Source: a virus (Duplodnaviria; Heunggongvirae; Uroviricota; Caudoviricetes). From it: a stretch of 16,655 bases of DNA. The notes beneath the pieces were generated by a model, which saw nothing but the letters and a program-made list of their open reading frames with translations, had not been told where the DNA came from and did not search any database. This document shows, piece by piece, positions 2,092 to 16,655 of the stretch. The position numbers and the translations under genes were made by a program. The stretch spans positions 1 to 16,655 of the IMG/VR virus record IMGVR_UViG_2619619134_000015; one strand, given 5' to 3'. Positions within the stretch are counted from its first letter, which is position 1; each line of letters begins with the position of its first letter.

Positions 2092-3387
2092 TCATTGATT
2101 CACCTCCTGCCTGTCGTCCGGCATTCGCTCACTACAGCTTATCCAACCATCCGGAGTTACCGGAGAGTTGCCATTTACCAAGTCAGCTCGAACATATAGC
2201 GTGTCATCATGGTGCTGATTGTGGCTGCACCACGTTAATTCGCTTAACTCGCCATCTTCTGGCCATACTCCAGCTGTTTGCAGCCAGATATGGGCTGGCG
2301 CATCTTGGCAAGGTGTATTAACTGGCAACTTGTAAGTTTGGCTTACAGGTTGGCTACCCTGAAGCATGGCAGCGTGGCAGGCATCCTCTACGCCCTTAAC
2401 TGCATCTGCGCAGTAGTTATAGCGATTGCATTCCACTAACTTCTGCTTGAGATTTTCAATTGCTTGCGCGACATCAGCCTGTATTGGCGGAACGGCTGTC
2501 TGCTGCTCTCGAACGTCATTAGTCGCTATCGGTTCTGCTGCCAACTGACTGGCATATTTGTTAATGGTAACGATAAGCTCTTGCTCGGCCTCATCCAGAC
2601 AATCACCGATACCTCGCCTGTCACCGTCAAAATCATCGAAATCGGCACGAATCTTGGCAACCTCCTGGATTGCGGACAACACTTCACCAGGAATAAGCCG
2701 AGAGTTGCCCGATAGTGCATTCTGCTCCAGTGATGCTTTTACAAACCACGCTGCCTGAACTATAACGCCATGAATCCAGCGCAAATCAGCATCGCGATCT
2801 TTCTTTTTCATCTTTTCGCCACTTAAGGCCTTGCTTATGTGGCTGCGTACCAGGTCTTCATGTAATTCCTTCGCCTCCTCAATGGTGAAACCACCAGGCA
2901 GAAGAGCCGGAGTTACCGGAGAGCTGGTTGACGCTTCCGGGATTTCCCGAAAATTATTGGTTGACGAATTCTTGCTTTCCCGAAAGTTTCCGGACTGAAG
3001 CATGGCGGTGCGGCAGGCGTTCCATATTTCGGCAGCAATATCGCGCTCGCTATCGGTTAATTTGTACGTGGAAACATAGCCAGAGAGCATTTCTACGTTT
3101 TCCGGAGTTGCTTCTTCCGGCACTACCGGCGCTGGCGGGGCGGCAAATAGATATCCGCCAAAGTCAGGAAGCTCTCCAATGGCCTGTACGAACTTTTGTT
3201 TGCCTACGTCAACTCCTAATGGGTAATGAGCTATAATCTTTGCCACCGGCTCTGCTGCCAGTGATGCCAGCGCAATCCGTGCCAGCTCTTCCGCTTCTTC
3301 TGCTGGAAGCACAACGTTGCTACCCGGTCCGTATGTTTCGCGCCACTGCTTGATTGTCAGCAGTCGCCCTTTGGTAATAGTGATCAT
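2092..3387 (-). CDS. Hypothetical modular phage protein (431 aa), possibly with a C-terminal DUF551-like domain
   Basis: Long ORF with an ATG at 3387 that overlaps the upstream gene stop (ATGA). It contains a 17-bp perfect direct repeat (ccggagttaccggagag at 2151-2167 and 2907-2923) encoding SPVTP linkers. The DUF551 assignment is from memory and unverified. Confidence 0.6.
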   Translation of the reverse strand: MITITKGRLLTIKQWRETYGPGSNVVLPAEEAEELARIALASLAAEPVAKIIAHYPLGVDVGKQKFVQAIGELPDFGGYLFAAPPAPVVPEEATPENVEMLSGYVSTYKLTDSERDIAAEIWNACRTAMLQSGNFRESKNSSTNNFREIPEASTSSPVTPALLPGGFTIEEAKELHEDLVRSHISKALSGEKMKKKDRDADLRWIHGVIVQAAWFVKASLEQNALSGNSRLIPGEVLSAIQEVAKIRADFDDFDGDRRGIGDCLDEAEQELIVTINKYASQLAAEPIATNDVREQQTAVPPIQADVAQAIENLKQKLVECNRYNYCADAVKGVEDACHAAMLQGSQPVSQTYKLPVNTPCQDAPAHIWLQTAGVWPEDGELSELTWCSHNQHHDDTLYVRADLVNGNSPVTPDGWISCSERMPDDRQEVNQ

Positions 3388-4991: not shown

Positions 4992-5183
4992 TCATACCTG
5001 GTCTCTCTCATCTGCTTCTGCTTTCGCCACCATCATTTCCAGCTTTTGTGAAAGGGATGCGGCTAACGTATGAAATACTTCGTCTGTTTCTACTGGTATT
5101 GGCACAAACCTGACTCCAATTTGAGCGAGGCTATGTGCCATCTCGATACTCGTTCTTAACTCAACGGGAGATGCTTTGTGCAT
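4992..5183 (-). CDS. Lambda orf63-like protein (63 aa)
   Basis: Exactly 63 aa, with an ATG at 5183 preceded by GGGGAG. Position relative to exo matches the lambda order exo-orf60a-orf63. Identification is from gene order and size plus partial memory of the sequence. Confidence 0.55.
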   Translation of the reverse strand: MHKASPVELRTSIEMAHSLAQIGVRFVPIPVETDEVFHTLAASLSQKLEMMVAKAEADERDQV

Positions 5184-5338
5184 ACAGCTCCCCGTTTATT
5201 ATTTATCTCCTCAGCCAGCCGCTGTGCTTTCAGGGGATTTCGGATAACAGAAAGGCCGGGAAATACCCAGCCTCGCTTTGTAACGGAGTAGACGAAAGTG
5301 ATCGCGCCTACCCGGATATTATCGTGAGGATGCTTCAT
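5156..5338 (-). CDS. Lambda orf60a-like protein (60 aa)
   Basis: The ATG at 5336-5338 overlaps the exo stop (ATGA), giving a 60-aa product ([16 protein letters not shown]...). It is immediately downstream of exo, as in lambda. Confidence 0.55.
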
Positions 5339-6015
5339 CGCCATTGCTCCCCAAATACAAAACCAATTTCAGCCAGTGCCTCGTCCATTTTTTCGATGAA
5401 CTCCGGCACCATCTCGTCAAAACTCGCCATGTAATTTTCATCCCGCTCAACCACGACATAATGCAGGCCTTCACGCTTCATTCGTGGGTCATAGTTGGCA
5501 AAGTACCAGGCATCTTTTCGCGTCACCCACATGCTGTACTGCACCTGGGCCATGTAAGCTGACTTTATGGCCTCGAAACCACCGAGCCGGAATTTCATGA
5601 AATCCCGGGAGGTAAACGGGCATTTCAGTTCAAGGCCGTTGCCGTCACTGCATAAACCATCGGGAGAGCAGGCGGTGCGCATACTTTCGTCGCGATAGAT
5701 GATCGGGGATTCAGTAACATTCACGCCGGAAGTAAACTCAAACAGGGCTCTGGCGTCGTTCTCGTACTGTTTTCCCCAGGCCAGCGCCTTAGCATTAACT
5801 TCCGGAGCCACACCGGTGCAAACCTCAGCCAGCAGGGTGTGGAAGTAGGACATTTTCATGTCAGGCCACTTCTTTCCTGAGCGGGGCTTTGCTATCACGT
5901 TGTGAACTTCTGAAGCGGTGATGACGCCGAGCAGTAATTTGTGCCATGCATCATCCCCCTGTTCGACAGCTCTCACGTCGATCCCGGTACGCTGCAGGAT
6001 AATGTCCGGTGTCAT
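5335..6015 (-). CDS. exo: Lambda exonuclease (Red-alpha), 226 aa
   Basis: The protein ([43 protein letters not shown] ... FVFGEQWR) matches lambda Exo as remembered. Its start overlaps the bet stop. Confidence 0.95.
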
Positions 6016-6797
6016 GCTGCCACCTTCTGCTCAGTGGCTTTCTGTTTCAGGAATCCAAGAGCTTTCACTGCTTCGGCCTGTGTCAGTTCTGACGATGCGC
6101 GAATGTCGCGGCGAAATATCTGGGAACAGAGCGGCAATAAGTCGTCATCCCATGTTTTATCCAGGGCGATCAGCAGAGTGTTAATCTCCTGCATGGTTTC
6201 ATCGTTAACCGGAGTGATGTCGCGTTCCGGCTGACGTTCTGCAGTGTATGCAGTATTTTCGACAATGCGCTCGGCTTCATCCTTGTCATAGATACCAGCA
6301 AATCCGAAGGCCAGACGGGCACACTGAATCATGGCTTTATGCCGTAACATCCGTTTGGGATGCGACTGCCACGGTCCGGTGATTTCTCTGCCTTCGCGGG
6401 TTTTGAATGGTTCGCGGCGGCATTCATCCATCCACTCGGTAACGCAGATCGGATGATTACGGTCCTTGCGGTAAATCCGGCATGTACATGATTCATTGTC
6501 CTGCTCAAAGTCCATGCCATCAAACTGCTGGTTTTCATTGATGATACGGGACCAGCCATCAACGCCCACCACCGGAACGATGCCGTTCTGCTTGTCAGGG
6601 AAGGCGTAAATTTCTTTCGTCCACGGATTAAGGCCGTACTGGTTGGCGACGATCAACAATGCGATGAACTGCGCATCGCTGGCATCACCTTTAAATGCCG
6701 TCTGGCGAAGAGTGGTGATCAGTTCCTGTGGGTCGACAGAATCCATGCCGACACGTTCAGCCAGCTTCCCAGCCAGCGTTGCGAGTGCTGTACTCAT
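6012..6797 (-). CDS. bet: Lambda Bet single-strand annealing protein (Red-beta), 261 aa
   Basis: The protein ([66 protein letters not shown]...) matches lambda Bet as remembered. Confidence 0.95.
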
Positions 6798-6802
6798 CCG
6801 TT

Positions 6803-7219
6803 TTATACCTCTGAATCAATATCAACCTGGTGGTGAGCAATGGTTTCAACCATGTACCGGATGTGTTCTGCCATGCGCTCCTGAAACTCAACATCGTCAT
6901 CAAACGCACGGGTAATGGCTTTTTTGCTGGCCCCGTGGCGTTGCAAATGATCGATGCATAGCGATTCAAACAGGTGCTAGGGCAGGCTTTTTTCCATGTC
7001 GTCTGCCAGTTCTGCCTCTTTCTCTTCACGGGCGAGCTGCTGGTAGTGACGCGTCCAGCTCTGAGCCTCAAGACGATCCTGAATGTAATAAGCGTTCATG
7101 GCTGAACTCCTGAAATAGCTGTGAAAATATCGCCCGCGAAATGCCGGGCTGATTAGGAAAACAGGAAAGGGGGTTAGTGAATGCTTTTGCTTGATCTCAG
7201 TTTCAGTATTAATATCCAT
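6803..7219 (-). pseudogene. gam: gam (RecBCD inhibitor) interrupted by an in-frame amber codon
   Basis: The locus is 417 nt, equal to the 138-codon lambda gam. The N-terminal 80 codons ([50 protein letters not shown]...DDMEKSLP) end at a TAG at 6977-6979. Downstream, the same frame encodes [57 protein letters not shown], matching the lambda Gam C-terminus, then a TAA at 6803-6805. Confidence 0.85.
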
Positions 7220-7317
7220 TTTTTATAAGCGTCGACGGCCTCACGAAACATCTTTTCATCGCCAATAAAAGTGGCGATAGTGAATTTAGTCTGGATAGCC
7301 ATAAGTGTTTGATCCAT
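7174..7317 (-). CDS. kil: Kil, host cell-division inhibitor (47 aa)
   Basis: [47 protein letters not shown] matches lambda Kil as remembered. It overlaps the gam start and the cIII 3' end, as in lambda. The ORF-track N-terminal extension to 7443 is an artefact. Confidence 0.8.
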
Positions 7318-7450
7318 TTTTTGGGACTCCTGGCTGATTAAGTATGTCGATAAGGCGTTTCCATCCGTCACGTAATTTACGGGTGATTCGTTCAAGTAAA
7401 GATTCGGAAGGGCAGCCAGCAACAGGCCACCCTGCAATGGCATATTGCAT
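7286..7450 (-). CDS. cIII: CIII, FtsH/HflB inhibitor that stabilises CII (54 aa)
   Basis: The ATG at 7448-7450 begins MQYAIAGWPVAGCP..., the lambda CIII N-terminus. The ORF is 165 nt and is absent from the ORF track because it is under 60 aa. Confidence 0.8.
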   Translation of the reverse strand: MQYAIAGWPVAGCPSESLLERITRKLRDGWKRLIDILNQPGVPKNGSNTYGYPD

Positions 7451-7522
7451 GGTGTGCTCCTTATTTATACATAACGAAAAACGCCTCGAGTGAAGCGTTA
7501 TTGGTATGCGGTAACGCCGCGC

Positions 7523-7891
7523 TCAGGCGGCTTTGATAGTCATATCATCTGAATCAAATATTCCTGATGTATCGATATCGGTAATTCTTATTCCTTCGCT
7601 ACCATCCATTGGAGGCCATCCTTCCTGACCGTTTCCATCATTCCAGTCGAACTCACACACAACACCATATGCATTTAAGTCGCTTGAAATTGCTATAAGC
7701 AGAGCATGTTGCGCCAGCATGATTAATACAGCATTTAATACAGAGCCGTGTTTATTGAGTCGGTATTCAGAGTCTGACCAGAAATTATTAATCTGGTAAA
7801 GTTTTTCCTCTGTCATTACGTCATGGTCGATTTCAATTTCTATTGATGCTTTCCAGTCGTAATCAATGATGTATTTTTTGATGTTTGACAT
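7523..7891 (-). CDS. ea10: Ea10-like protein (122 aa)
   Basis: Its size and its position immediately upstream of cIII match lambda ea10. ATG at 7891. Confidence 0.7.
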   Translation of the reverse strand: MSNIKKYIIDYDWKASIEIEIDHDVMTEEKLYQINNFWSDSEYRLNKHGSVLNAVLIMLAQHALLIAISSDLNAYGVVCEFDWNDGNGQEGWPPMDGSEGIRITDIDTSGIFDSDDMTIKAA

Positions 7892-7910
7892 CTATTCATA
7901 TCCTCACAGA

Positions 7911-7937
7911 TAAAAAATCGCCCTCATACTGGAGGGC
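7911..7937 (-). terminator. Rho-independent terminator (leftward) between the accessory cassette and ea10
   Basis: On the minus strand, a GCCCTC-(6 nt)-GAGGGC hairpin (7920-7937) is followed by GATTTTTTAT. Confidence 0.5.
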
Positions 7938-8041
7938 AAAGAAGATTTCCAATAATCAGAACAAGTCGACTCCTGTTTAGTTACGAGCGACATTGCTCCG
8001 TGTATTCACTCGTTGGAATGAATACACAGTGCTTATTCGTA

Positions 8042-8512
8042 CTAATAAAACACCCAGTTTTCTGTTTCTTGGTTGTGTCCAAAGTTATATTCAATATCTG
8101 GTGTTGATGTATCAATATTCTTCATCCCATCAACAAGAGTTGATGCAACAGCCAAATCTTGTTTGATTCTCATTAAATGGTATTTCTTCCGGCGCAATAA
8201 ACTTTCAATGGCAAGTTTCTTCGTTGGGAATGCAAAAGATCTTTCTGCATTTTTTGCTACTTTCTTAATTGCATATCTATTTCTCTTTTGTTTCCATTCC
8301 TGTAACCACTGATTTGGTGCTGGTTTAAAATTAACAATCCAATGCGCAGGAACCAACCATGCATAATGCTCTGTCTGATGAAAAGCTATATATTGAAGTG
8401 CGAATATTTTGATTCCATCTTCTTCAACTGTCGCCTGGAATCTCCAGAAAACAGGCATTCCATCATGTTCAGTTTCTGATTCAGGAAAAGGTACGCTCCA
8501 TGATTTTGTCAT
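8042..8512 (-). CDS. Hypothetical protein (156 aa), accessory cassette gene A
   Basis: ATG at 8512 preceded by GAGGTGA. It lies in an AT-rich segment (judged by eye) in the position of lambda ral/sieB. No recognisable motifs. Confidence 0.6.
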   Translation of the reverse strand: MTKSWSVPFPESETEHDGMPVFWRFQATVEEDGIKIFALQYIAFHQTEHYAWLVPAHWIVNFKPAPNQWLQEWKQKRNRYAIKKVAKNAERSFAFPTKKLAIESLLRRKKYHLMRIKQDLAVASTLVDGMKNIDTSTPDIEYNFGHNQETENWVFY

Positions 8513-8569
8513 ATCTCACCTCAAATAATTCAGTGCAGTGTTTATTCTGTTGCTTATTCCAAAGCAAAT

Positions 8570-8812
8570 TTAACCAGCAACAAACTCTTCTGGTAATTTA
8601 TCAACCACTTGATGGCTTATTATCAGCCATTTGCCATCCTTCGTTCCGTATGCATATTTCTGGTCTTTTATCATCATGTGTTCAGCTACTGCCTTAACTG
8701 CCTGTTCGGTTACATCTTCTTTCTTTCCCACCCACATTCCTTTTTCAGTGTTTAATGTTCCTTGAAAAATACGACCACTTAATGGGCTTGCGCCCATAGT
8801 TTTGATTTTCAT
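8570..8812 (-). CDS. Hypothetical protein (80 aa; MKIKTMGASPLSGRIFQGT...), accessory cassette gene B
   Basis: Start chosen at the ATG at 8810-8812, preceded by GGAGA. The longer ORF-track start at 8875 has no RBS and would overlap gene C. Confidence 0.5.
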   Translation of the reverse strand: MKIKTMGASPLSGRIFQGTLNTEKGMWVGKKEDVTEQAVKAVAEHMMIKDQKYAYGTKDGKWLIISHQVVDKLPEEFVAG

Positions 8813-8820
8813 ATGTCTCC

Positions 8821-8848
8821 TTAAAAATAAAGGCCGATTATGCGGCCT
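8821..8848 (-). terminator. Hairpin plus T-run (leftward) between cassette genes C and B
   Basis: On the minus strand, an AGGCCG-cataat-CGGCCT hairpin (8831-8848) is followed by TTATTTTTAA, immediately before the gene B RBS. Confidence 0.45.
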
Positions 8849-8852
8849 GAAA

Positions 8853-9176
8853 TTAATTAACCAATGATGCTGCATATTCGATAAGGTAAAGCTTTGGGGC
8901 CAGCCAAATTTTTAACCAAGTCATATTGGTTACTGCACCAATAATAAAATCCCCCCACAGAGTCAAAACTCCAACCAATGGCACGATAAGAAGATTAATA
9001 TCACCTTTGCTATCCCAAACCATTGTCGGCCTGTATTTGGGATTTCCTTTCTCCCATGAATATCCTTCATCACCGATTTCACCTGTCTCAACTCTTTGGC
9101 ACTGCTTCTTCATAAACCAGAAAACCAGTGGGATTGTTAGAATGGCTATTAATGTTTTAATCAGACTGTCAACCAT
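8853..9176 (-). CDS. Small membrane protein (107 aa, two predicted TM helices), accessory cassette gene C
   Basis: Start at the ATG at 9174-9176 (the ORF-track start at 9191 is a TTG). Hydrophobic stretches LIKTLIAILTIPLVFWF and INLLIVPLVGVLTLWGDFIIGAV. RBS is weak. Confidence 0.5.
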   Translation of the reverse strand: MVDSLIKTLIAILTIPLVFWFMKKQCQRVETGEIGDEGYSWEKGNPKYRPTMVWDSKGDINLLIVPLVGVLTLWGDFIIGAVTNMTWLKIWLAPKLYLIEYAASLVN

Positions 9177-9442
9177 ATTCCATAGCAGCAACTGATGAAC
9201 AACATCAGGAATCTGTGCCTGGCTAAATGAAACAGCCGCGTCTATTCCATTGCTGGCTTTTTGCAGTAGTTCTACGAGAATCTTGTTTGCTTGTTCTTCC
9301 GTATATCACCTTAAATAGTGGATTGCGGTAGTAAAGATTGTGCCTGTCTTTTAACCACATCGGGCTCGGTGGTTCCTCCACTTTCCACAGTCAAAGGAAA
9401 TGGGTAGACTGTTGTTTCCACAGTCAAAAGAAGGGCTTTGTT

Positions 9443-9607
9443 ATGACAGATATTGTTAATCCCAAAACCAACCCACACGAAGCCGCTCAACAGATTATTG
9501 TTGAGCTTATCAGAGCCGGTAATCTTGCCCCTGGCATTGACGGAAAGCCAAGCACAGTTGTTTATGAAAAAATTCTTGATGAGATTATCAGAATAAACAG
9601 TAAGTAA
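9443..9607 (+). CDS. Hypothetical small protein (54 aa; MTDIVNPKTNPHEAAQQIIVELIRAGNLAPGIDGKPSTVVYEKILDEIIRINSK)
   Basis: First ATG of the 9338..9607 ORF, preceded by AAGAAGGG. It is the only rightward ORF in the left arm and is preceded by two 18-bp direct repeats. Confidence 0.35.
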   Translation: MTDIVNPKTNPHEAAQQIIVELIRAGNLAPGIDGKPSTVVYEKILDEIIRINSK

Positions 9608-9847
9608 TTAAGAGAACAAAATTTCGAATGCCTGGCGGATGGTTGCAACATCTTCGTTCGTCAGTTTTTTTCGTTCATCTGATGACATCGATAACAATGC
9701 ATTCCTCTCAATCAACGTAGCCAGCAGTTTAGATGCTATATTTTGAACGTCAGGGCTTAACTCTAAGAATTTATTTCGACTACGTTCGAGAATAAGTTGT
9801 GTCGCGGGTGTATCTTTTAACTCAGATATTTTTTTTGTCCAATACAT
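9608..9847 (-). CDS. Hypothetical protein (79 aa from the ATG at 9847) immediately downstream of N
   Basis: The ORF-track start at 9871 is a TTG; the first ATG is at 9845-9847 with a weak RBS. It is convergent with the 54-aa plus-strand ORF. Confidence 0.35.
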   Translation of the reverse strand: MYWTKKISELKDTPATQLILERSRNKFLELSPDVQNIASKLLATLIERNALLSMSSDERKKLTNEDVATIRQAFEILFS

Positions 9848-9904
9848 CAAGCATTTCTTTCGTTTTCTCAATTAGTAATTGTTCAATACATGAAATATCC
9901 ATAA

Positions 9905-10213
9905 TTACCTCGCCGTCAGTTGTTTTGATTTCCGATAGCCTGCCACGTAGATGGCTACGTTTGGCAGGCAAATGCTTCCATTGCATTCGTCGGTATTTTG
10001 GTTACGAATGTTGCCGAGTGATATTGCTTTTTCAGAAAGGCTTAAACGCTTTCTCGGTTCTTTCTGAACAGGTTCATCACTGTCTGTACCGAAGATCGAA
10101 TCGATGATGTTGCATATAGCATCACGCTCGATAGCCAGCTTTCTGCGCCGCTCATGACGGCGAGTTTTGGCATTTCCTGTAAATGTTGATTTCCCGTACA
10201 CGATTACCGTCAT
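9905..10213 (-). CDS. N: N-type transcription antiterminator (102 aa), P22 gp24-like
   Basis: Arginine-rich motif GNAKTRRHERRRKLAIERD near the N-terminus, matching my recollection of P22 gp24. It sits between the immunity region and the recombination genes. The nut sites have P22-type GACAA boxB loops. Confidence 0.8.
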   Translation of the reverse strand: MTVIVYGKSTFTGNAKTRRHERRRKLAIERDAICNIIDSIFGTDSDEPVQKEPRKRLSLSEKAISLGNIRNQNTDECNGSICLPNVAIYVAGYRKSKQLTAR

Positions 10214-10392
10214 GATGTTTTCCTCATGTAAAATGGCTTTGGTGGTGAGGTAGGTGGGAGACCCATTTCGACCTGTTTCGGCCTACTTCAATTCGGCAAT
10301 AGTCCCGCAGGCCTCGCCGCTTTACGTGCGACATATTCCCGTCCATGAACCCTTCACCACACCGCCAAACCCATCTCGTTTGGTATCTGTTT

Positions 10393-10426
10393 GCGCTTTG
10401 TCAGCGCCCCATCGAAGTTAAAGAGC
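10393..10426 (-). promoter_or_regulatory. nutL (boxA-like GCTCTTTAA plus boxB hairpin GCGCU-GACAA-AGCGC)
   Basis: Read on the minus strand: boxA-like GCTCTTTAA, a roughly 10-nt spacer, then a perfect 5-bp stem with a GACAA pentaloop. Confidence 0.55.
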
Positions 10427-10776
10427 CCGCCAATCTGTTCCGTTTGGCTTCCAACGTCCTGCTGATGGCGATAATAATGAACCAGTAGTTCGATATTATC
10501 AAGAACTATTGGTACGAATCGTTTATGATTTATTAACTCTACGAAATATGATTTTGATATATAAGGAAATTTATTTTTGTAAATGTTGCGGATGAAGGTT
10601 ATGCGGCAGGGATCAGAATTGCGTGGTTTAGCAAGTTGTATCTATTTATTTTTCAATAAATACAATTGGTTATGTGTTTTTAGATGGTGGATCGGGAGGC
10701 AAAGAAAACTGCTAGGTAGAAAACTGTGGGCACAAAAAAGCTAATGTGGAGTTGTTTGATCTTTTTAGGGGAATAA
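10427..10776 (-). promoter_or_regulatory. Presumed pL/OL region (promoter and operators not resolved)
   Basis: AT-rich non-coding segment between the terminator of the cI-linked module and nutL. Position only; no confident -35/-10 or operator assignment. Confidence 0.3.
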
Positions 10777-10803
10777 GAAAACCCGCCGAAGCGGGTGTTT
10801 TTG
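10777..10803. terminator. Bidirectional rho-independent terminator (AAAACCCGC-CGAA-GCGGGTGTTTTT)
   Basis: GC-rich 6-bp stem with a 4-nt loop flanked by an A-run on one side and a T-run on the other. It lies immediately after the stop of the 40-aa ORF, in the position of the lambda immunity-operon terminator. Confidence 0.7.
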
Positions 10804-10804
10804 G

Positions 10805-10927
10805 TTATGCTGCCATTGGAAGCTTTGATGCTAGCATTTCTGCTTTTCTCTGCTTCATTTCAGCAATAATCTGATTGATTCGATCCGCACTTTTAAGCAT
10901 ATCTTTGATATGTTCAGTTCTAGACAT
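10805..10927 (-). CDS. Hypothetical small protein (40 aa; MSRTEHIKDMLKSADRINQIIAEMKQRKAEMLASKLPMAA)
   Basis: Not in the ORF track because it is under 60 aa. ATG at 10925-10927 preceded by GGAGG at 6-nt spacing, 23 nt after the stop of the 120-aa gene. A TAA stop is followed directly by the terminator. Confidence 0.5.
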   Translation of the reverse strand: MSRTEHIKDMLKSADRINQIIAEMKQRKAEMLASKLPMAA

Positions 10928-10950
10928 GTTTATCCTCCGCTCTGTAAGTG

Positions 10951-11313
10951 TCAAAGACCCGATTTAGCACTCTTGAGTAGTTTTGATCCCTCAGAGCACA
11001 AATCAGGATTCTTTTCTCTTATGTTTTTGATTAAAATCTGTGCAAATATGATGATTTGCTTTAAGTTTAGTTCATTGATTGCATCAGCTTTTTGGTCAAG
11101 TTTCTCTAGCTCTGCATCTAATTCGTCAAGAGATGGGTTTGTTAACTCATGCAACCCTTCAATTCCAAGCTCTTCAAGACTGGTTGTAACAAATTCAATC
11201 AGACCGATTACAGCCTTTTTGACGCTATATATCTGCTTCTCCTCTGCGGAGGCCTCTGCACTTGGAACCAATGCTAAGGTTTTCAGATATTCATTCGTTT
11301 CATCTTGGGTCAC
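10951..11313 (-). CDS. Hypothetical acidic protein (120 aa) in the rexA/rexB position downstream of cI
   Basis: GTG start at 11311-11313 preceded by AAGGAG at 8-nt spacing. Same strand as cI and AT-rich. The overlapping plus-strand ORF 10910..11434 has antisense-like S/F-rich composition. Confidence 0.55.
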   Translation of the reverse strand: MTQDETNEYLKTLALVPSAEASAEEKQIYSVKKAVIGLIEFVTTSLEELGIEGLHELTNPSLDELDAELEKLDQKADAINELNLKQIIIFAQILIKNIREKNPDLCSEGSKLLKSAKSGL

Positions 11314-11479
11314 TAACTATACTCCTTATATATGCTCGATCAACCCATTTTGCAACCGCATTTACTGGGATAGAGCTTTTTTTACAATAGTCTTATGTGT
11401 ATATTTACAACGTTGTTTGTGGATAGGGTTATGATTTGTACCTAAAACCTGTCGCATTTTCGTCTCTATGCTATTGGTA

Positions 11480-12187
11480 TTAATAATTTCTCAGCCACTC
11501 CCTTGCCTCGATGTCATCCAGATGGCGAGATTGCTTCAGAATACCAGCCACATACTCCACCTTTGCTACTTGATGATAAGGCAACGTTATTGGTCTGTGG
11601 TCCTGGTTGATGCTTGTAAATTGGTATTCTCCATCTCTGTCATAGCCAAGAATCTTGATCATGTTGTGTCCTTCGATGGTTCTGACAAACACCTCATCAC
11701 CCGGGAATACTTTGGTGTTAGGCTCAATGAGTACATATTCTCCTGATTTTATTCTGGGCCACATGCTGTCTCCTTTCACACGAAGACCAAAGGCATCTGG
11801 ATCATCGCTATAAATCTTGAGCCACCCATCGCGTTCTTCGGTCATCTCGATGGCACCATCAACACCAAGAATTGCCTCACCAACCACGCGCACTAACCCT
11901 TTTTTTAATTTGCCAACAAATGAAAGAGTATCTTCATCATTCGCTCCATTTAACGAAGTGCCGTGCTGAAGCCAAACAACATCAACGTTTAGAAATTTCG
12001 CAAGCGCATTCATTTTTTCCTGACGCGGTAAAGACTCAGCATTAAACCATTTGCTAACGCCTTTGGACGAAAGAGAAAGGGCACGGGCTATAGCCATTCC
12101 CCTACCATGTTCATCAAGACCAGCTTCTTTACAGGCTTGCGCTAGCCGCTGGGCGAATTCTTTGCGCACTTTTTCATTCTGAACCAT
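11480..12187 (-). CDS. cI: CI-type prophage repressor (235 aa), HTH N-terminal domain plus LexA/S24-like self-cleaving C-terminal domain
   Basis: N-terminal HTH region (GMAIARALSLSSKGVSKWFNAE) and a C-terminal domain with the Ser (GDSMWP) and downstream Lys typical of the S24 peptidase fold. It is divergent from cro. It is not the lambda cI sequence. Confidence 0.85.
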   Translation of the reverse strand: MVQNEKVRKEFAQRLAQACKEAGLDEHGRGMAIARALSLSSKGVSKWFNAESLPRQEKMNALAKFLNVDVVWLQHGTSLNGANDEDTLSFVGKLKKGLVRVVGEAILGVDGAIEMTEERDGWLKIYSDDPDAFGLRVKGDSMWPRIKSGEYVLIEPNTKVFPGDEVFVRTIEGHNMIKILGYDRDGEYQFTSINQDHRPITLPYHQVAKVEYVAGILKQSRHLDDIEAREWLRNY

Positions 12188-12265
12188 GAGTACGATACTA
12201 AAGCACTTGCAAAAACTTTCAGTTCAATCATAATGCGTACTGAAAGTACGAAAAAGGATATTCCT
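12188..12265. promoter_or_regulatory. OR/pR/pRM region between cI and cro
   Basis: Candidate pR: -35 TTGCAA (12207-12212) and -10 CATAAT (12229-12234) at 16-nt spacing. A perfect palindrome CGTACtgaaaGTACG (12235-12249) and inverted 9-mers ACTTTCAGT/ACTGAAAGT are candidate operator elements. Confidence 0.45.
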
Positions 12266-12493
12266 ATGCAAAATCTTGATGAGCCGATTAAAGGTGTCGG
12301 CATACCTGAAGTTGCGAAGGCTTGTGGAGTTAGCGAAAGGGCTGTCTATAAGTGGCTCAAAAACGGCTTCCTCCCTAAGACTGAGTTTTTTGGGAAAACG
12401 AAATACGCCTCAAAAATCGAAGAGATTTCTGGTGGCAAATATCAAGCAAGCGAAATGCTTGAAATAAGTAAAAAGAACCTTCTGGCTGCATAA
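12266..12493 (+). CDS. cro: Cro-type repressor (75 aa)
   Basis: ATG at 12266 preceded by AAGGA. HTH motif AKACGVSERAVYKWLKNG. It is divergent from cI and followed by nutR. Confidence 0.7.
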   Translation: MQNLDEPIKGVGIPEVAKACGVSERAVYKWLKNGFLPKTEFFGKTKYASKIEEISGGKYQASEMLEISKKNLLAA

Positions 12494-12500
12494 GTAACAC

Positions 12501-12535
12501 CGCTCTTTATCAATCTGCACCGCCGACAACGCGGT
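12501..12535 (+). promoter_or_regulatory. nutR (boxA CGCTCTTTA plus boxB-like hairpin with GACAA loop)
   Basis: CGCTCTTTA at 12501-12509, then ACCGCCGACAACGCGGT at 12519-12535. A hairpin/T-rich stretch (cactcatcgaaagatgagtattagtgattattt) follows and is a possible tR1. Confidence 0.55.
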
Positions 12536-12599
12536 AACTAATTAAGCACTCATCGAAAGATGAGTATTAGTGATTATTTACCTATGGAAATAGTAAGAA

Positions 12600-12896
12600 A
12601 TGGAAAGAACAAGTTACAGCAAACTATCACAGCGTGACGTTGATCGCGCAGAAACAGATTTACTTATCAATCTGTCAGCTATTACCCAGCGCGGTCTGGC
12701 AAAGATGATTGGCTGTCATGAATCGAAGATAAGCAGAACGGACTGGCGGTTTATTGCTTCGGTCCTGTGTGCTTTCGGAATGGCATCAGACATCAGTCCG
12801 ATTAGCAGGGCTTTTAAGTATGCGCTTGATGAAATCATCAATAAAAAACGCCCGGCGGCAACCGAGCGTTCTGAACAAATCCAGATGGAATTCTGA
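12600..12896 (+). CDS. cII: CII transcriptional activator (98 aa), chimeric: divergent N-terminal part, lambda-identical C-terminus
   Basis: The C-terminus NKKRPAATERSEQIQMEF is identical to lambda CII. The N-terminal 80 residues are homologous in pattern but divergent. Confidence 0.8.
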   Translation: MERTSYSKLSQRDVDRAETDLLINLSAITQRGLAKMIGCHESKISRTDWRFIASVLCAFGMASDISPISRAFKYALDEIINKKRPAATERSEQIQMEF

Positions 12897-12917
12897 GATC
12901 ATTACTGGATCAATCCA
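12842..12917 (-). ncRNA. oop: OOP antisense RNA with its terminator
   Basis: On the minus strand, the 3' end reads GTTGCCGCCGGGCGTTTTTTAT, the characteristic lambda oop terminator. The body is antisense to the cII 3' end. The 5' end is estimated by lambda homology (GGATTGATCCAGTAATGA...). Confidence 0.6.
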
Positions 12918-12928
12918 CAGGAGTCATT

Positions 12929-13867
12929 ATGACAAATACAGCAAAAATACTCAACTTCTGCAGAGGTAACTTTGCCAAACAGGAGCGTAATGTGGCAGAT
13001 CTCGATGATGGTTACGCCAGACTATCAAATATGCTGATTGAGGCTTATTCAGGCGCAGATCTGACCAAGCGACAGTTTAAAGTGCTGCTTGCCATTCTGC
13101 GTAAAACCTATGGGTGGAATAAACCAATGGACAGAATCACCGATTCTCAACTTAGCGAGATTACAAAGTTACCTGTCAAACGGTGCAATGAAGCCAAGTT
13201 AGAACTCGTCAGAATGAATATTATCAAGCAGCAAGGCGGCATGTTTGGACCAAATAAAAACATCTCAGAATGGTGCATCCCTCAAAACGAGGGAGGTTCC
13301 CCTAAAATGAGGGACATCCCTCAAAACGAGGGAAAATCCCCTAAAACGAGGGATAAAACATCCCTCAAATTAGGGGATTGCTATCCCTCAAAACAGGGGG
13401 ACACAAAAGACACTATTACAAAAGAAAAAAGAAAAGATTATTCGTCCGAGAATTCTGGCGAATCCTCTGACCAGCCAGAAAACGATCTTTCTGTGGTTAA
13501 ACCGGATGCTGCAATTCAGAGCGGCAGCAAGTGGGGAACAGCAGAAGACCTGACCGCCGCAGAGTGGATGTTTGACATGGTGAAGACCATCGCACCATCA
13601 GCCAGAAAACCGAATTTTGCAGGGTGGGCTAACGATATCCGCCTGATGCGTGAACGTGACGGACGTAACCACCGCGACATGTGCGTGCTGTTCCGCTGGG
13701 CATGCCAGGACAACTTCTGGTCCGGTAACGTGCTAAGTCCGGCCAAACTCCGCGACAAGTGGACCCAGCTCGAAATCAACCGTAACAAGCAACAGGCTGG
13801 CGTGACAGCTGGAAAACCAAAACTCGACCTGACAAACACTGACTGGATTTACGGGGTGGATTTATGA
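12929..13867 (+). CDS. O: Replication initiator O (312 aa)
   Basis: MTNTAKILNF...TDWIYGVDL matches lambda O as remembered, except for a 13-aa insertion (GGSPKMRDIPQNE) that corresponds to two extra ori iterons. Confidence 0.95.
   Translation: MTNTAKILNFCRGNFAKQERNVADLDDGYARLSNMLIEAYSGADLTKRQFKVLLAILRKTYGWNKPMDRITDSQLSEITKLPVKRCNEAKLELVRMNIIKQQGGMFGPNKNISEWCIPQNEGGSPKMRDIPQNEGKSPKTRDKTSLKLGDCYPSKQGDTKDTITKEKRKDYSSENSGESSDQPENDLSVVKPDAAIQSGSKWGTAEDLTAAEWMFDMVKTIAPSARKPNFAGWANDIRLMRERDGRNHRDMCVLFRWACQDNFWSGNVLSPAKLRDKWTQLEINRNKQQAGVTAGKPKLDLTNTDWIYGVDL
13278..13401. repeat. ori-lambda-type iteron array within O: six roughly 18-bp iterons (TCCCTCAAAACGAGGGA-like) at about 20-bp periodicity
   Basis: Iterons at approximately 13278, 13298, 13317, 13337, 13361 and 13384, followed by an A-rich region (acaaaagacactattacaaaagaaaaaagaaaag). 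Confidence 0.85.
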
Positions 13868-14565
13868 AAAACATCGCCGCACAGATGGTTAACTTTGACC
13901 GTGAGCAGATGCGTCGGATCGCCAACAACATGCCGGAACAGTACGACGAAAAGCCGCAGGTACAACAGGTAGCGCAGATCATCAACGGTGTGTTCAGCCA
14001 GTTACTGGCAACTTTCCCGGCGAGTCTGGCTAACCGGGACCAGAACGAACTGAATGAAATCCGCCGCCAGTGGGTTCTGGCTTTCCGGGAAAACGGGATC
14101 ACCTCGATGGAACAGGTTAACGCAGGAATGCGCGTAGCCCGTCGGCAGAATCGACCATTTCTTCCATCACCCGGGCAGTTTGTTGCATGGTGCCGGGAAG
14201 AAGCATCCGTTATCGCCGGACTGCCAAACGTCAGCGAGCTGGTTGATATGGTTTACGAGTATTGCCGGAAGCGAGGCCTGTATCCGGATGCAGAGTCTTA
14301 TCCGTGGAAATCGAACGCGCACTACTGGCTGGTTACCAACCTGTACCAGAACATGCGGGCCAATGCGCTGACTGACGCGGAATTACGACGCAAGGCTGCC
14401 GATGAACTGACCTGTATGACAGCGCGAATTAACCGTGGTGAGACGATACCTGAACCAGTAAAACAACTTCCTGTCATGGGCGGCAGACCTCTAAATCGTG
14501 TTCAGGCGCTGGCGAAGATCGCAGAAATTAAAGCTAAGTTCGGACTGAAAGGAGCAAGTGTATGA
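13864..14565 (+). CDS. P: Replication protein P (DnaB helicase loader), 233 aa
   Basis: MKNIAAQMVNFDREQMRRIANNMPEQYDEKPQVQQVAQIINGVFSQLLATFPAS... matches lambda P as remembered. Its start overlaps the O stop (ATGA). Confidence 0.95.
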   Translation: MKNIAAQMVNFDREQMRRIANNMPEQYDEKPQVQQVAQIINGVFSQLLATFPASLANRDQNELNEIRRQWVLAFRENGITSMEQVNAGMRVARRQNRPFLPSPGQFVAWCREEASVIAGLPNVSELVDMVYEYCRKRGLYPDAESYPWKSNAHYWLVTNLYQNMRANALTDAELRRKAADELTCMTARINRGETIPEPVKQLPVMGGRPLNRVQALAKIAEIKAKFGLKGASV

Positions 14566-14852
14566 CGGGCAAAGAGGCAATTATTCATTACCTGGGGACG
14601 CATAATAGCTTCTGTGCGCCGGACGTTGCCGCGCTAACAGGCGCAACAGTAACCAGCATAAATCAGGCTGCGGCTAAAATGGCGCGGGCAGGAATCCTGG
14701 TCATTGATGGTAAGGTCTGGCGAACGGTGTATTACCGGTTTGCTACCAGGGAAGAACGGGAAGGAAAGGTGAGCACGAACCTGATTTTTAAGGAGTGTCG
14801 CCAGAGTGCAGCGATGAAACGGGTATTGGCGGTATATGGAGTTAAAAGATGA
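14562..14852 (+). CDS. ren: Ren (96 aa)
   Basis: MTGKEAIIHYLGTHNSFCAPDVAALTGATVTSINQAAAKMARAGILVIDGKVWRT... matches lambda Ren as remembered. Confidence 0.9.
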   Translation: MTGKEAIIHYLGTHNSFCAPDVAALTGATVTSINQAAAKMARAGILVIDGKVWRTVYYRFATREEREGKVSTNLIFKECRQSAAMKRVLAVYGVKR

Positions 14853-14876
14853 CCATCTACATCACTGAGCTAATAA

Positions 14877-14907
14877 CAGGCCTGCTGGTAATCGCAGGCC
14901 TTTTTAT
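14877..14907 (+). terminator. Rho-independent terminator (tR2-like)
   Basis: AGGCCTGC-tggtaatc-GCAGGCCT hairpin followed by TTTTTATTT, just downstream of ren. Confidence 0.6.
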
Positions 14908-14922
14908 TTGGGGGAGAGGGAA

Positions 14923-15240
14923 GTGAACGATAGCTACCGACAGTTTGAAAACTGGTGGTCAAAAGACAAAAGCCAGTTCACGGGAGACGATGAATTAAAA
15001 GAGTTTGCCTGGGTGATATGGCAGGCATCGCGCTCTGCTATTGAACTGGATATCGACTGGCCCGAATCGAATGACGACTTTTGGAAAGATGGTGAAGAAG
15101 GTGCTTATGCGATGGGTTATGAGGATGGGAGAGACAAAACGGTAATTGCAGTAATGAAAGCTATCAGATCCGCTGGAATTAAAGAGAAGAATTTCGATGA
15201 AGCAAATATACATGCTTCGCAACGAAGCAATCAGAAATAA
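14923..15240 (+). CDS. Hypothetical acidic protein (about 105 aa)
   Basis: GTG start at 14923 preceded by GGGAGAGGG; the ORF-track start at 14908 is a TTG inside the terminator T-run. Its 3' end overlaps the ninB start by about 44 nt in another frame. Confidence 0.45.
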   Translation: MNDSYRQFENWWSKDKSQFTGDDELKEFAWVIWQASRSAIELDIDWPESNDDFWKDGEEGAYAMGYEDGRDKTVIAVMKAIRSAGIKEKNFDEANIHASQRSNQK

Positions 15241-15643
15241 CGCCATAGACGCAATACTCTCACTTCCCATCGACGACAAGTCACCCCACGAAGTCCACCT
15301 TAAAGAACCCAAACGCAGCAAAGCGCAGAATGACCGTATGTGGCCGATGCTGAACGATGTTTCGCGTCAGGTGCTATGGCATGGTCAACGGCTGGCACCG
15401 GAAGACTGGAAAGACCTGTTCACTGCCCTGTGGCTTAAGACCAAAAAACTGGAGCAACGAAGTGTTCCTGGTATCGACGGTGGCGTTGTCATGCTTGGCG
15501 TGCGTACCAGCAAAATGCGAAAGGCCAGCATGACTGAGCTTATCGAAATCATGTTCTGGTTCGGCTCAGAGCGCAACGTGCGGTGGAGTGATGACTCCCG
15601 GCGAGAGTATGAATGGTCACAACGAAAAGGGAAGGCTGCATGA
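15197..15643 (+). CDS. ninB: NinB-like recombination protein (148 aa)
   Basis: Clear but diverged similarity to lambda NinB (QNDRMWPMLNDVSRQVLWHGQRL..., VRWSD..., C-terminal GKAA). Start could be the ATG at 15197 or at 15212. Confidence 0.8.
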   Translation: MKQIYMLRNEAIRNNAIDAILSLPIDDKSPHEVHLKEPKRSKAQNDRMWPMLNDVSRQVLWHGQRLAPEDWKDLFTALWLKTKKLEQRSVPGIDGGVVMLGVRTSKMRKASMTELIEIMFWFGSERNVRWSDDSRREYEWSQRKGKAA

Positions 15644-16167
15644 CTATCAAATCAAATACACCAGCGTCAGATAGGTATCGGCTTATTGAGGATTATCTGT
15701 ATTTAGACGGAGATACAGTCAGATACAAAAAGGACTCGCTAAAACACCCCAACCACAGCCACCGGGCCGGAGATGAAATTAAAACATCGATAAATGGATC
15801 TGGGTATAGACAGGTGTGTTTTGCAGGCATTCAGATGTTTGTTCACGTAGTTGTTTTTGCGCTGCACAACAAAAGAATGCCATTGAAAAATATTGACCAT
15901 ATTAACGGAAACAGGCTGGACAATTCCCCAAAAAATCTTAGGGAGGCAAACCGGATAGCAAACAGCCGAAATCAGAAAACTAAGTGCAATAGCCGTTCTG
16001 GAATAAAAAATGTTTTATGGAACAAGCAAAAAAATAAATGGGCCGTTCAAGTGCGCACAGATTTTGGCCGGTTGCATTTTGGGTTCTATGAAGATCTTGA
16101 GCTTGCTGGTTTGGTTGCCAGTGAGGCTATCAACAAATATCACGGACAATATGCGAGGGTTGAATGA
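15640..16167 (+). CDS. HNH homing-type endonuclease with a C-terminal AP2-like DNA-binding domain (175 aa)
   Basis: HNH core (HNKRMPLKNIDHINGNRLDNSPKNLREANRIANSRN) followed by a segment typical of AP2-like domains in phage HNH endonucleases (SGIKNVLWNKQKNKWAVQV...FGFYEDLELA). Its ATG overlaps the ninB stop (ATGA) and its stop overlaps the next gene start (ATGA). Confidence 0.75.
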   Translation: MTIKSNTPASDRYRLIEDYLYLDGDTVRYKKDSLKHPNHSHRAGDEIKTSINGSGYRQVCFAGIQMFVHVVVFALHNKRMPLKNIDHINGNRLDNSPKNLREANRIANSRNQKTKCNSRSGIKNVLWNKQKNKWAVQVRTDFGRLHFGFYEDLELAGLVASEAINKYHGQYARVE

Positions 16168-16655
16168 TTAAGCATAAATCAGAAACACCAAAAGAAGTTA
16201 GAGACTGCTGGCAAACGCCGCTTTGGCTTTTTGATGCACTGGATATTGAGTTTGGATTCTGGCTGGATTCAGCTGCGAGCGACAAAAACGCTCTGTGCGC
16301 TCACTGGCTAACTGAGGTCGACGACGCGCTCAATTCTGAGTGGGTAAGCCACGGTGCAATCTGGAATAACCCACCGTACAGCAATATCAGGCCGTGGGTG
16401 GAAAAAGCCGCTGAGCAGTGCATACAACAGCGACAGACGGTAGTTATGCTTGTGCCAGAGGATATGTCAGTCGGATGGTTCAGCAAGGCTCTGGAGAGTG
16501 TCGACGAAGTTCGCATTATCACTGATGGACGGATTAATTTTATCGAACCATCGACGGGGCTGGAGAAGAAGGGAAACAGCAAAGGCTCCATGCTGCTGAT
16601 TTGGCGACCGTTCATCAGTCCTCGACGGATGTTTACTACCGTATCCAAAGCGGCA
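16164..16655 (+). CDS. Phage N6-adenine DNA methyltransferase (Dam-like), 3'-truncated by the window end
   Basis: Open frame from the ATG at 16164 to the window end (164 codons). It carries the motif IV NPPY (IWNNPPYSNIRPWV) and sits in the nin region where lambdoid phages commonly carry such an enzyme. It is absent from the ORF track because no stop lies within the window. Confidence 0.8.
   Translation, partial: MIKHKSETPKEVRDCWQTPLWLFDALDIEFGFWLDSAASDKNALCAHWLTEVDDALNSEWVSHGAIWNNPPYSNIRPWVEKAAEQCIQQRQTVVMLVPEDMSVGWFSKALESVDEVRIITDGRINFIEPSTGLEKKGNSKGSMLLIWRPFISPRRMFTTVSKAA

Follow-up and report, generated by a model that had tools for sequence, protein, structure and literature searches.

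A single C-to-T transition has turned glutamine codon 81 of a lambda-type gam gene (codon 41 in the numbering of the short form, GamS) into an amber codon in the stretch of DNA analysed here, which is 16,655 nucleotides long and is referred to as the window throughout. The lesion lies in a wild lambdoid prophage, and the affected protein, Gam, is the inhibitor with which the phage blocks the RecBCD nuclease of its host. We consider it very probable that it leaves the phage with an inactive Gam, and thus Red+ Gam-, that it is neutral as long as the prophage is repressed and that it is carried along with the host clone.

Amber codon in the gam reading frame

The gam reading frame, which corresponds to the long form of the protein (GamL), is located at positions 6803–7219 on the minus strand and is 138 codons in length including the internal stop, as seen from its translation, from alignments and from comparison with the Pfam family PF06064. 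Translation of this frame gives 80 sense codons (MDINTE...MEKSLP), the amber codon and 57 further in-frame codons, which end with DIDSEV and are followed by a normal TAA. The amber occupies positions 6977–6979, where the plus strand reads cta and hence the coding (minus) strand TAG. The changed base is position 6979, an A on the plus strand and a T on the coding strand, and it corresponds to nucleotide 241 of gam.

Nucleotide alignment with the intact gam of the E. coli MB19 prophage (L001) reveals one difference in 417 nt (99.8% identity), located at nucleotide 241, which is T in the window and C in MB19. Lambda gam also has C at this nucleotide, in agreement with the initial annotation, which had placed a Gln codon of lambda there. 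The comparison with lambda that it had proposed as a check gives an identity of 99.0%: besides nucleotide 241, lambda differs from the window gene at three further sites (nucleotides 166, 232 and 301), so that the total is four bases. The three substitutions relative to lambda (A56T, G78S and S101A in GamL numbering) are present in intact natural alleles too, and the three differences other than the stop are also found in the prophage of a poultry isolate.

The codons on the 3′ side of the stop (6806–6976, minus strand; 57 codons) are in frame but no longer translated, and their DNA is identical to that of the intact MB19 allele. The same is true of the frame as a whole, in which all of the remaining 137 codons are sense codons with DNA identical to MB19. 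Therefore, the amber is not chance noise in a decayed frame. The initial annotation had reported an in-frame TAG at codon 81 followed by 57 intact in-frame codons, and both points are borne out by the sequence and its translation. Its further suggestion, that this was a recent single C-to-T nonsense change rather than decay, agrees with the distance of one base from MB19 and with the finding that none of the ten loci bearing the TAG has a further gam lesion.

When Gln is restored at codon 81, residues 41–138 match PF06064 over positions 1–98 of 98 with 210 bits (cut-off 25), and the reconstituted Gam can be aligned in full with the GamS chains of known structure, 5MBV and 2UUZ/2UV1 (E = 3.5e-60). 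The order of the genes, cIII-kil-gam-bet-exo, is the same as in lambda and in MB19, which places gam where it is expected in the early leftward operon. By its profile, its match to solved structures and its gene order, the gene is a lambda-family gam in ancestry. However, its 98-aa GamS frame is interrupted by the TAG at 6977–6979, which leaves only positions 1–40 of the profile translatable, and the gene is therefore a gam pseudogene (a nonsense allele) and not a functional member of the family.

GamL and GamS forms and the truncated product

The form of the inhibitor whose structure has been solved is GamS, comprising residues 41–138 (PMC5218532). In the window, the 138-codon frame is that of GamL while the GamS start is the ATG at 7097–7099, and the RefSeq annotation of the intact MB19 gam is 297 bp in length, i.e. 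98 codons and a stop. Reading of the sequence points to a putative ribosome-binding site, AGGAG (7107–7111, minus strand), situated 7 nt on the 5′ side of this ATG. The translatable remnant from the GamS start (6977–7099, minus strand) consists of 40 codons and the stop, and exactly this 40-aa product is on record. It spans positions 1–40 of the 98 positions of the Pfam Gam profile, the amber having removed the C-terminal 58 residues, that is everything beyond GamS residue 40.

The initial annotation had described the product as an 80-aa N-terminal fragment. This length is correct for translation from the upstream GamL start, but from the GamS start only 40 aa remain. A look-up of the public assembly collection returned no record of the 80-aa product; the 40-aa product is recorded and the 80-aa product is not because gene callers take the GamS start. 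On the 3′ side of the amber there is no ATG with a plausible start before codon 118 that might serve for an in-frame restart. The 47-aa ORF beginning with TTG (6803–6946) was dismissed as a mechanical gene call, as were the small antisense or overlapping ORFs near the amber, for example 6974–7105 (plus strand) and 6757–7071 (minus strand), which are without support. For purposes of annotation, the 40-aa and 47-aa 'Gam' ORFs of such assemblies are the two halves of one pseudogene.

Source of the prophage and authenticity of the allele

The window is 100% identical across 16,655 nt to NCBI contig JNMT01000038.1 of the E. coli draft genome GCA_000700485.1 (L004). In this contig, a 437-aa integrase, whose stop codon forms bases 1–3 of the window, abuts host genes for a DUF72 protein, a MAPEG protein and two methyltransferases. 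We take these genes next to the integrase to be yecE-yecN-cmoA-cmoB, a known lambdoid integration site. The closest matches to the window are relatives of Stx phages, e.g. 933W and AU5Stx1, and the best coverage of the window is at most 63% by any complete E. coli genome and at most 60% by any phage record (59–60% for the best phage). The layout of the prophage is that of a 933W-like immunity and replication region combined with a lambda-like kil-gam-bet-exo. The source is a wild mosaic lambdoid prophage of a natural human-gut E. coli lineage, and it is neither lambda nor a cloning vector.

The initial annotation had raised the alternative of a laboratory gam-amber phage, and contamination by a vector belongs to the same line of thought. 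Lambda gam amber alleles, such as gam210, do exist in laboratory stocks (PMC2082072). However, the lambda genetic background of a gam210-type laboratory allele is not what is found here. The gene has three natural differences from lambda, which are common to the prophage of the poultry isolate, the window is a mosaic with the limited coverage given above, its integrase adjoins host chromosomal genes, and the sources of the allele are wild isolates and gut metagenomes. We therefore reject a laboratory stock as the origin of the sequence and regard its probability as negligible.

The chance that the TAG is a sequencing or assembly error appears to be just as minute. Such errors are most often substitutions of a single base. 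However, the same base is present in ten loci retrieved from independent assemblies, including NCBI isolates, Logan assemblies and ENA metagenome assemblies from different BioSamples. Precisely this 40-aa product is indexed in 115 blocks of the public assembly collection and is known from 68 contigs. It appears at NCBI as the Gam of E. coli 7-233-03_S3_C2 and 3-073-06_S4_C1, and further copies come from Logan assemblies of SRA runs and ENA assemblies of gut metagenomes, representing several BioSamples. An error at this position, which the initial annotation had named as a result that would overturn its reading, is thus effectively excluded by the occurrence of the allele in many independent assemblies.

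Rarity, origin and spread of the allele

The allele was searched for with a 55-nt query in which position 28 is the mutated base, which forces each 28-nt megablast seed to contain it. Neither the 5,426 complete E. coli genomes nor the 50,697 phage records contain a match to the TAG 55-mer, whereas the CAG control 55-mer is found at 2,641 places in 2,226 of the same complete genomes. Exact-pattern scans for the TAG allele gave no match in IMG/VR or in the JGI metagenomes, and a 35-mer of the allele found nothing in GTDB contigs representing one genome per species. A 20-mer across the amber has a single match among the GTDB representatives, in an Aeromonadaceae MAG (L003, 924–943), within a 510-aa oxidoreductase-like ORF without similarity to gam. 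This match was rejected as chance, because a scan of both strands of 596 Gb is expected to give about 1.1 matches of this kind.

Among the ten TAG-bearing loci no base differs within 5934–10780, wherever this region is covered, and a host flank of 3,080 nt is identical in the three loci which reach that far. The identity of the ten loci over this region indicates a single mutational event, after which the allele appears to have been inherited mainly with one host lineage while gam has not decayed further. A look-up of the 47-aa C-terminal fragment for independent disruptions of gam yielded extra contigs, but these were discarded as gam copies cut by contig ends. Short 'partial' Gam entries which cluster with the 47-aa fragment end at various positions, are labelled partial and were likewise set aside.

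The differences that exist among the ten TAG loci form short dense patches (5404–5933, 11549–11726, 14370–14863 and 16271–16409), which fall in exo, cI, P/ren and dam and look like gene conversion between lambdoid prophages.

One metagenome contig, ERZ1743094 NODE_36 (L009, 1–5838, about 5x coverage), carries the TAG-bearing block from exo to DUF7446 together with a different integrase of 387 aa. The host genes beside this integrase were taken as ynfG-ynfH-dmsD-clcB from their Pfam families. L009 may show the allele in a second prophage context, or it may be an assembly chimera. If the junction is genuine, horizontal movement of the allele has taken place as well, and pure clonal hitch-hiking may be an incomplete description of its spread.

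Probable consequences for Gam function

GamS purifies and acts as a dimer which mimics duplex DNA and is placed over the duplex-DNA site on the arm of RecB, while one long N-terminal helical extension of GamS fills the 3′-ssDNA channel of RecB, burying about 2,500 square angstroms (PMC5218532). The remnant encoded in the window corresponds to the N-terminal part of GamS, including the helix that enters RecB, and it may have some residual weak binding. We infer from the crystal structure that the 58 missing C-terminal residues presumably form the dimeric DNA-mimic body. Because this part is missing, the 40-aa product is almost certainly inactive against RecBCD, and the phage would be Red+ Gam-.

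The sequence suggests the following course of events. Translation from the GamS start would halt after 40 residues (80 from the upstream start), with loss of RecBCD inhibition. Upon induction, RecBCD would stay active and rolling-circle concatemers would be attacked, so that packaging would have to rely on multimers made by Red or RecA. The phage would be viable with a burst that is probably smaller, like gam- red+ lambda. Attack of RecBCD on the concatemers, packaging of multimers made by Red or RecA, a smaller burst and viability are all predicted by the established genetics of lambda. In the lysogen, cI represses the early leftward operon; with this operon silent, the allele is expected to be neutral for the host and to ride with the host clone. 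When plated, gam- red+ lambda forms small plaques (10.64898/2026.07.10.737580). Rho-dependent polarity of the amber on bet and exo should be limited, since the operon is N-antiterminated, N being present at 9905–10213, and bet has its own GAGG.

It might be argued that the amber is read through, either by a host suppressor tRNA, a possibility which the initial annotation had mentioned, or by a near-cognate tRNA-Gln at a weak Pro-UAG-C context, which would make the allele a knock-down and not a null. The context of the stop is CCC TAG CAC. Both a C after the stop and a Pro before it reportedly lead to poor termination, as is said to have been found by Poole, Brown and Tate in 1995 and by Hayes, Bose and Sauer in 2002. 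It is conceivable that near-cognate readthrough would restore the original Gln and supply a trickle of intact Gam. SuII is a suppressor that inserts Gln. The laboratory amber gam210 is suppressible by SuII as well as by SuIII (PMC2082072).

However, no tRNA gene is present in the window or in L004, L005 and L009, and the sister prophage L014, whose right arm is almost identical, has only Met(CAT), Arg(TCG) and Arg(TCT) tRNAs. TAG is also an ordinary stop in this phage, as it ends orf156, which matches phrog_1636 over 156 of 156 positions. The usual level of natural readthrough is 1% or below, phages with an amber in gam behave as Gam- in Su- hosts, and a chromosomal amber suppressor is unusual in wild E. 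coli. We consider appreciable rescue of Gam by readthrough very unlikely. A phage in which TAG is recoded as Gln was rejected as well, given that none of the 32 other genes called in the window contains an internal stop and that orf156 ends with TAG. The gene table on which this count is based has 35 rows, three of which are fragments of gam.

Possible selection for the loss of Gam

A further explanation accepts the same molecular lesion and differs only in the reason for its persistence. According to this explanation, the gam knock-out has been selected, allowing the phage to avoid abortive infection triggered by RecBCD inhibition, as in the case of retron Ec48 and P2 OLD. In its favour, escapers of Ec48 arise by gam frameshifts: in five of six lambda-vir escapers a single gam frameshift was the only mutation, and the sixth also had a gam frameshift (10.1101/2020.06.21.156273). 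P2 OLD is escaped in a comparable manner, gam- red+ lambda being able to plate on OLD+ cells (10.64898/2026.07.10.737580). Because the Ec48 and OLD escapers are gam-, Red+ Gam- is a genotype that defences can select, and it is exactly the genotype of the window phage. The allele has also been sampled often (68 contigs) and possibly in a second prophage context (L009).

However, the allele has one mutational origin and shows no recurrence, the look-up of the 47-aa fragment having given only gam copies cut by contig ends; this check covered calls of the 47-aa C-terminal fragment and not other kinds of gam disruption. In addition, the allele is absent from the 5,426 complete E. coli genomes and the 50,697 phage records, and the identical host flank fits simple clonal inheritance. 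Selection for escape therefore appears rather unlikely to us. We are slightly more doubtful about its fullest version, in which the amber is a naturally selected knock-out or knock-down (perhaps with leaky Gln readthrough) that dodges the guards of RecBCD while Red is kept, and in which the block has spread to an L009-type prophage. If selection did operate, the allele would illustrate in the field a trade-off known until now only from laboratory escape mutants. Our preferred explanation is that of an inactivated Gam which is neutral in the repressed prophage and inherited with the host clone.

Comparison with known gam alleles

The window gene resembles lambda Gam (GamS/GamL; PF06064; PDB 2UUZ, 2UV1 and 5MBV) in its 99.0% DNA identity and in its place between kil and bet-exo. 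It differs from lambda Gam in having a stop at codon 81/41, which limits the product to 40 of the 98 GamS residues, and in the three further substitutions. The intact gam of MB19 is like that of the window except for the C/T difference at nucleotide 241, and it encodes the full 98-aa Gam. L014 is like the window over 7174–16655 with two SNPs, and in contrast to the window it also encodes the full 98-aa protein.

With gam210 and other laboratory gam ambers, the window allele shares an amber nonsense codon in gam and the expected phenotype, namely Gam- in non-suppressing hosts with restoration by a Gln- or Tyr-inserting suppressor (PMC2082072). However, the window allele has arisen in a wild mosaic prophage and not in lambda. 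In the searchable literature, no statement of the codon mutated in gam210 was found, PMC2082072 giving the phenotype only. The lambda-vir escapers of Ec48 and lambda1191 (gam- red+, which escapes P2 OLD) are similar in being Red+ Gam- by way of a small gam lesion, but these were obtained under laboratory selection by a defined defence, whereas the window allele sits in a resident prophage.

By analogy with these mutants, the window allele would be expected to work like the classical gam amber and gam-null alleles. Lambdoid phages lacking Gam have been familiar for decades as mutants that remain viable. The gam of the window is an inherited knock-out of a well-known, dispensable gene and belongs to ordinary prophage variation, not to a new kind of element. 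As a nonsense mutation in a gene that ranks among the best studied in phages, it matters little alone. However, as a natural Red+ Gam- prophage it can be used to ask whether defences that guard RecBCD drive the loss of Gam in wild phages.

Neighbouring genes and related prophages

The genes on either side of gam are intact. On the minus strand, bet (RecT family, 6012–6797, 261 aa) has its ATG 5 nt past the TAA of gam, with its own GAGG lying within the 3′ end of gam, and it is followed by exo (YqaJ/lambda exonuclease family, 5335–6015, 226 aa). On the other side, and on the same strand, the GamL frame overlaps kil (7174–7317, 47 aa) by its first 15 codons, and cIII is located at 7286–7450 (54 aa). 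None of bet, exo, kil, cIII, N, cI, cII, O and P has an internal stop. No defence function was revealed when the adjacent unannotated ORFs were scanned with PADLOC and PHROG.

An ORF of 431 aa (2092–3387, minus strand) is situated between the Ead/Ea22 region and the integrase module. It has no Pfam match and no PADLOC match, and appears in PHROG comparisons as a patchwork of families of unknown function (phrog_14306, phrog_60 and others). For the gene at 8853–9281 (minus strand), the public call of 142 aa would begin at ATT, while the mechanical ORF from a canonical start (TTG), 8853–9191, is 112 aa in length and the calls in relatives are 56 or 107 aa long, which makes the position of its start uncertain.

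A free-standing HNH_3 endonuclease ORF of 175 aa (15640–16167, plus strand) is present between ninB (15197–15643) and dam (16164 to the end of the window), with an overlap of 4 nt with each. Look-ups with the HNH_3 protein and with NinB led to other prophages. In eight of the ten loci retrieved with NinB (L021–L023 and L025–L029), ninB is followed directly by dam. Because most of these relatives have ninB directly before dam, the HNH_3 gene looks like a mobile presence/absence insertion.

Two sister prophages are closely related to the window over long stretches. The first, L014 (GCA_012535255.1), which differs from the window by two SNPs over 7174–16655, has its intact 98-aa Gam on a different gam-bet-exo patch. 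Its three tRNA genes (15121–15370) lie between an N6_N4 methyltransferase gene and a DUF1737/SASA gene, an arrangement which we take to be typical of the late regions of Stx phages, and no gene with a Shiga-toxin Pfam family was called in the L014 late region. The second, L017 (CM127658.1), is 100% identical to the window over 8189–13226. In L017, an IS66-family element (5124–7549) occupies the expected place of the replication gene O, and downstream of Q there is a porin gene (12936–14018), both of which are also seen in L030. The presence of the IS66-family element and the porin gene in L017 shows ongoing decay and cargo gain in this prophage family.
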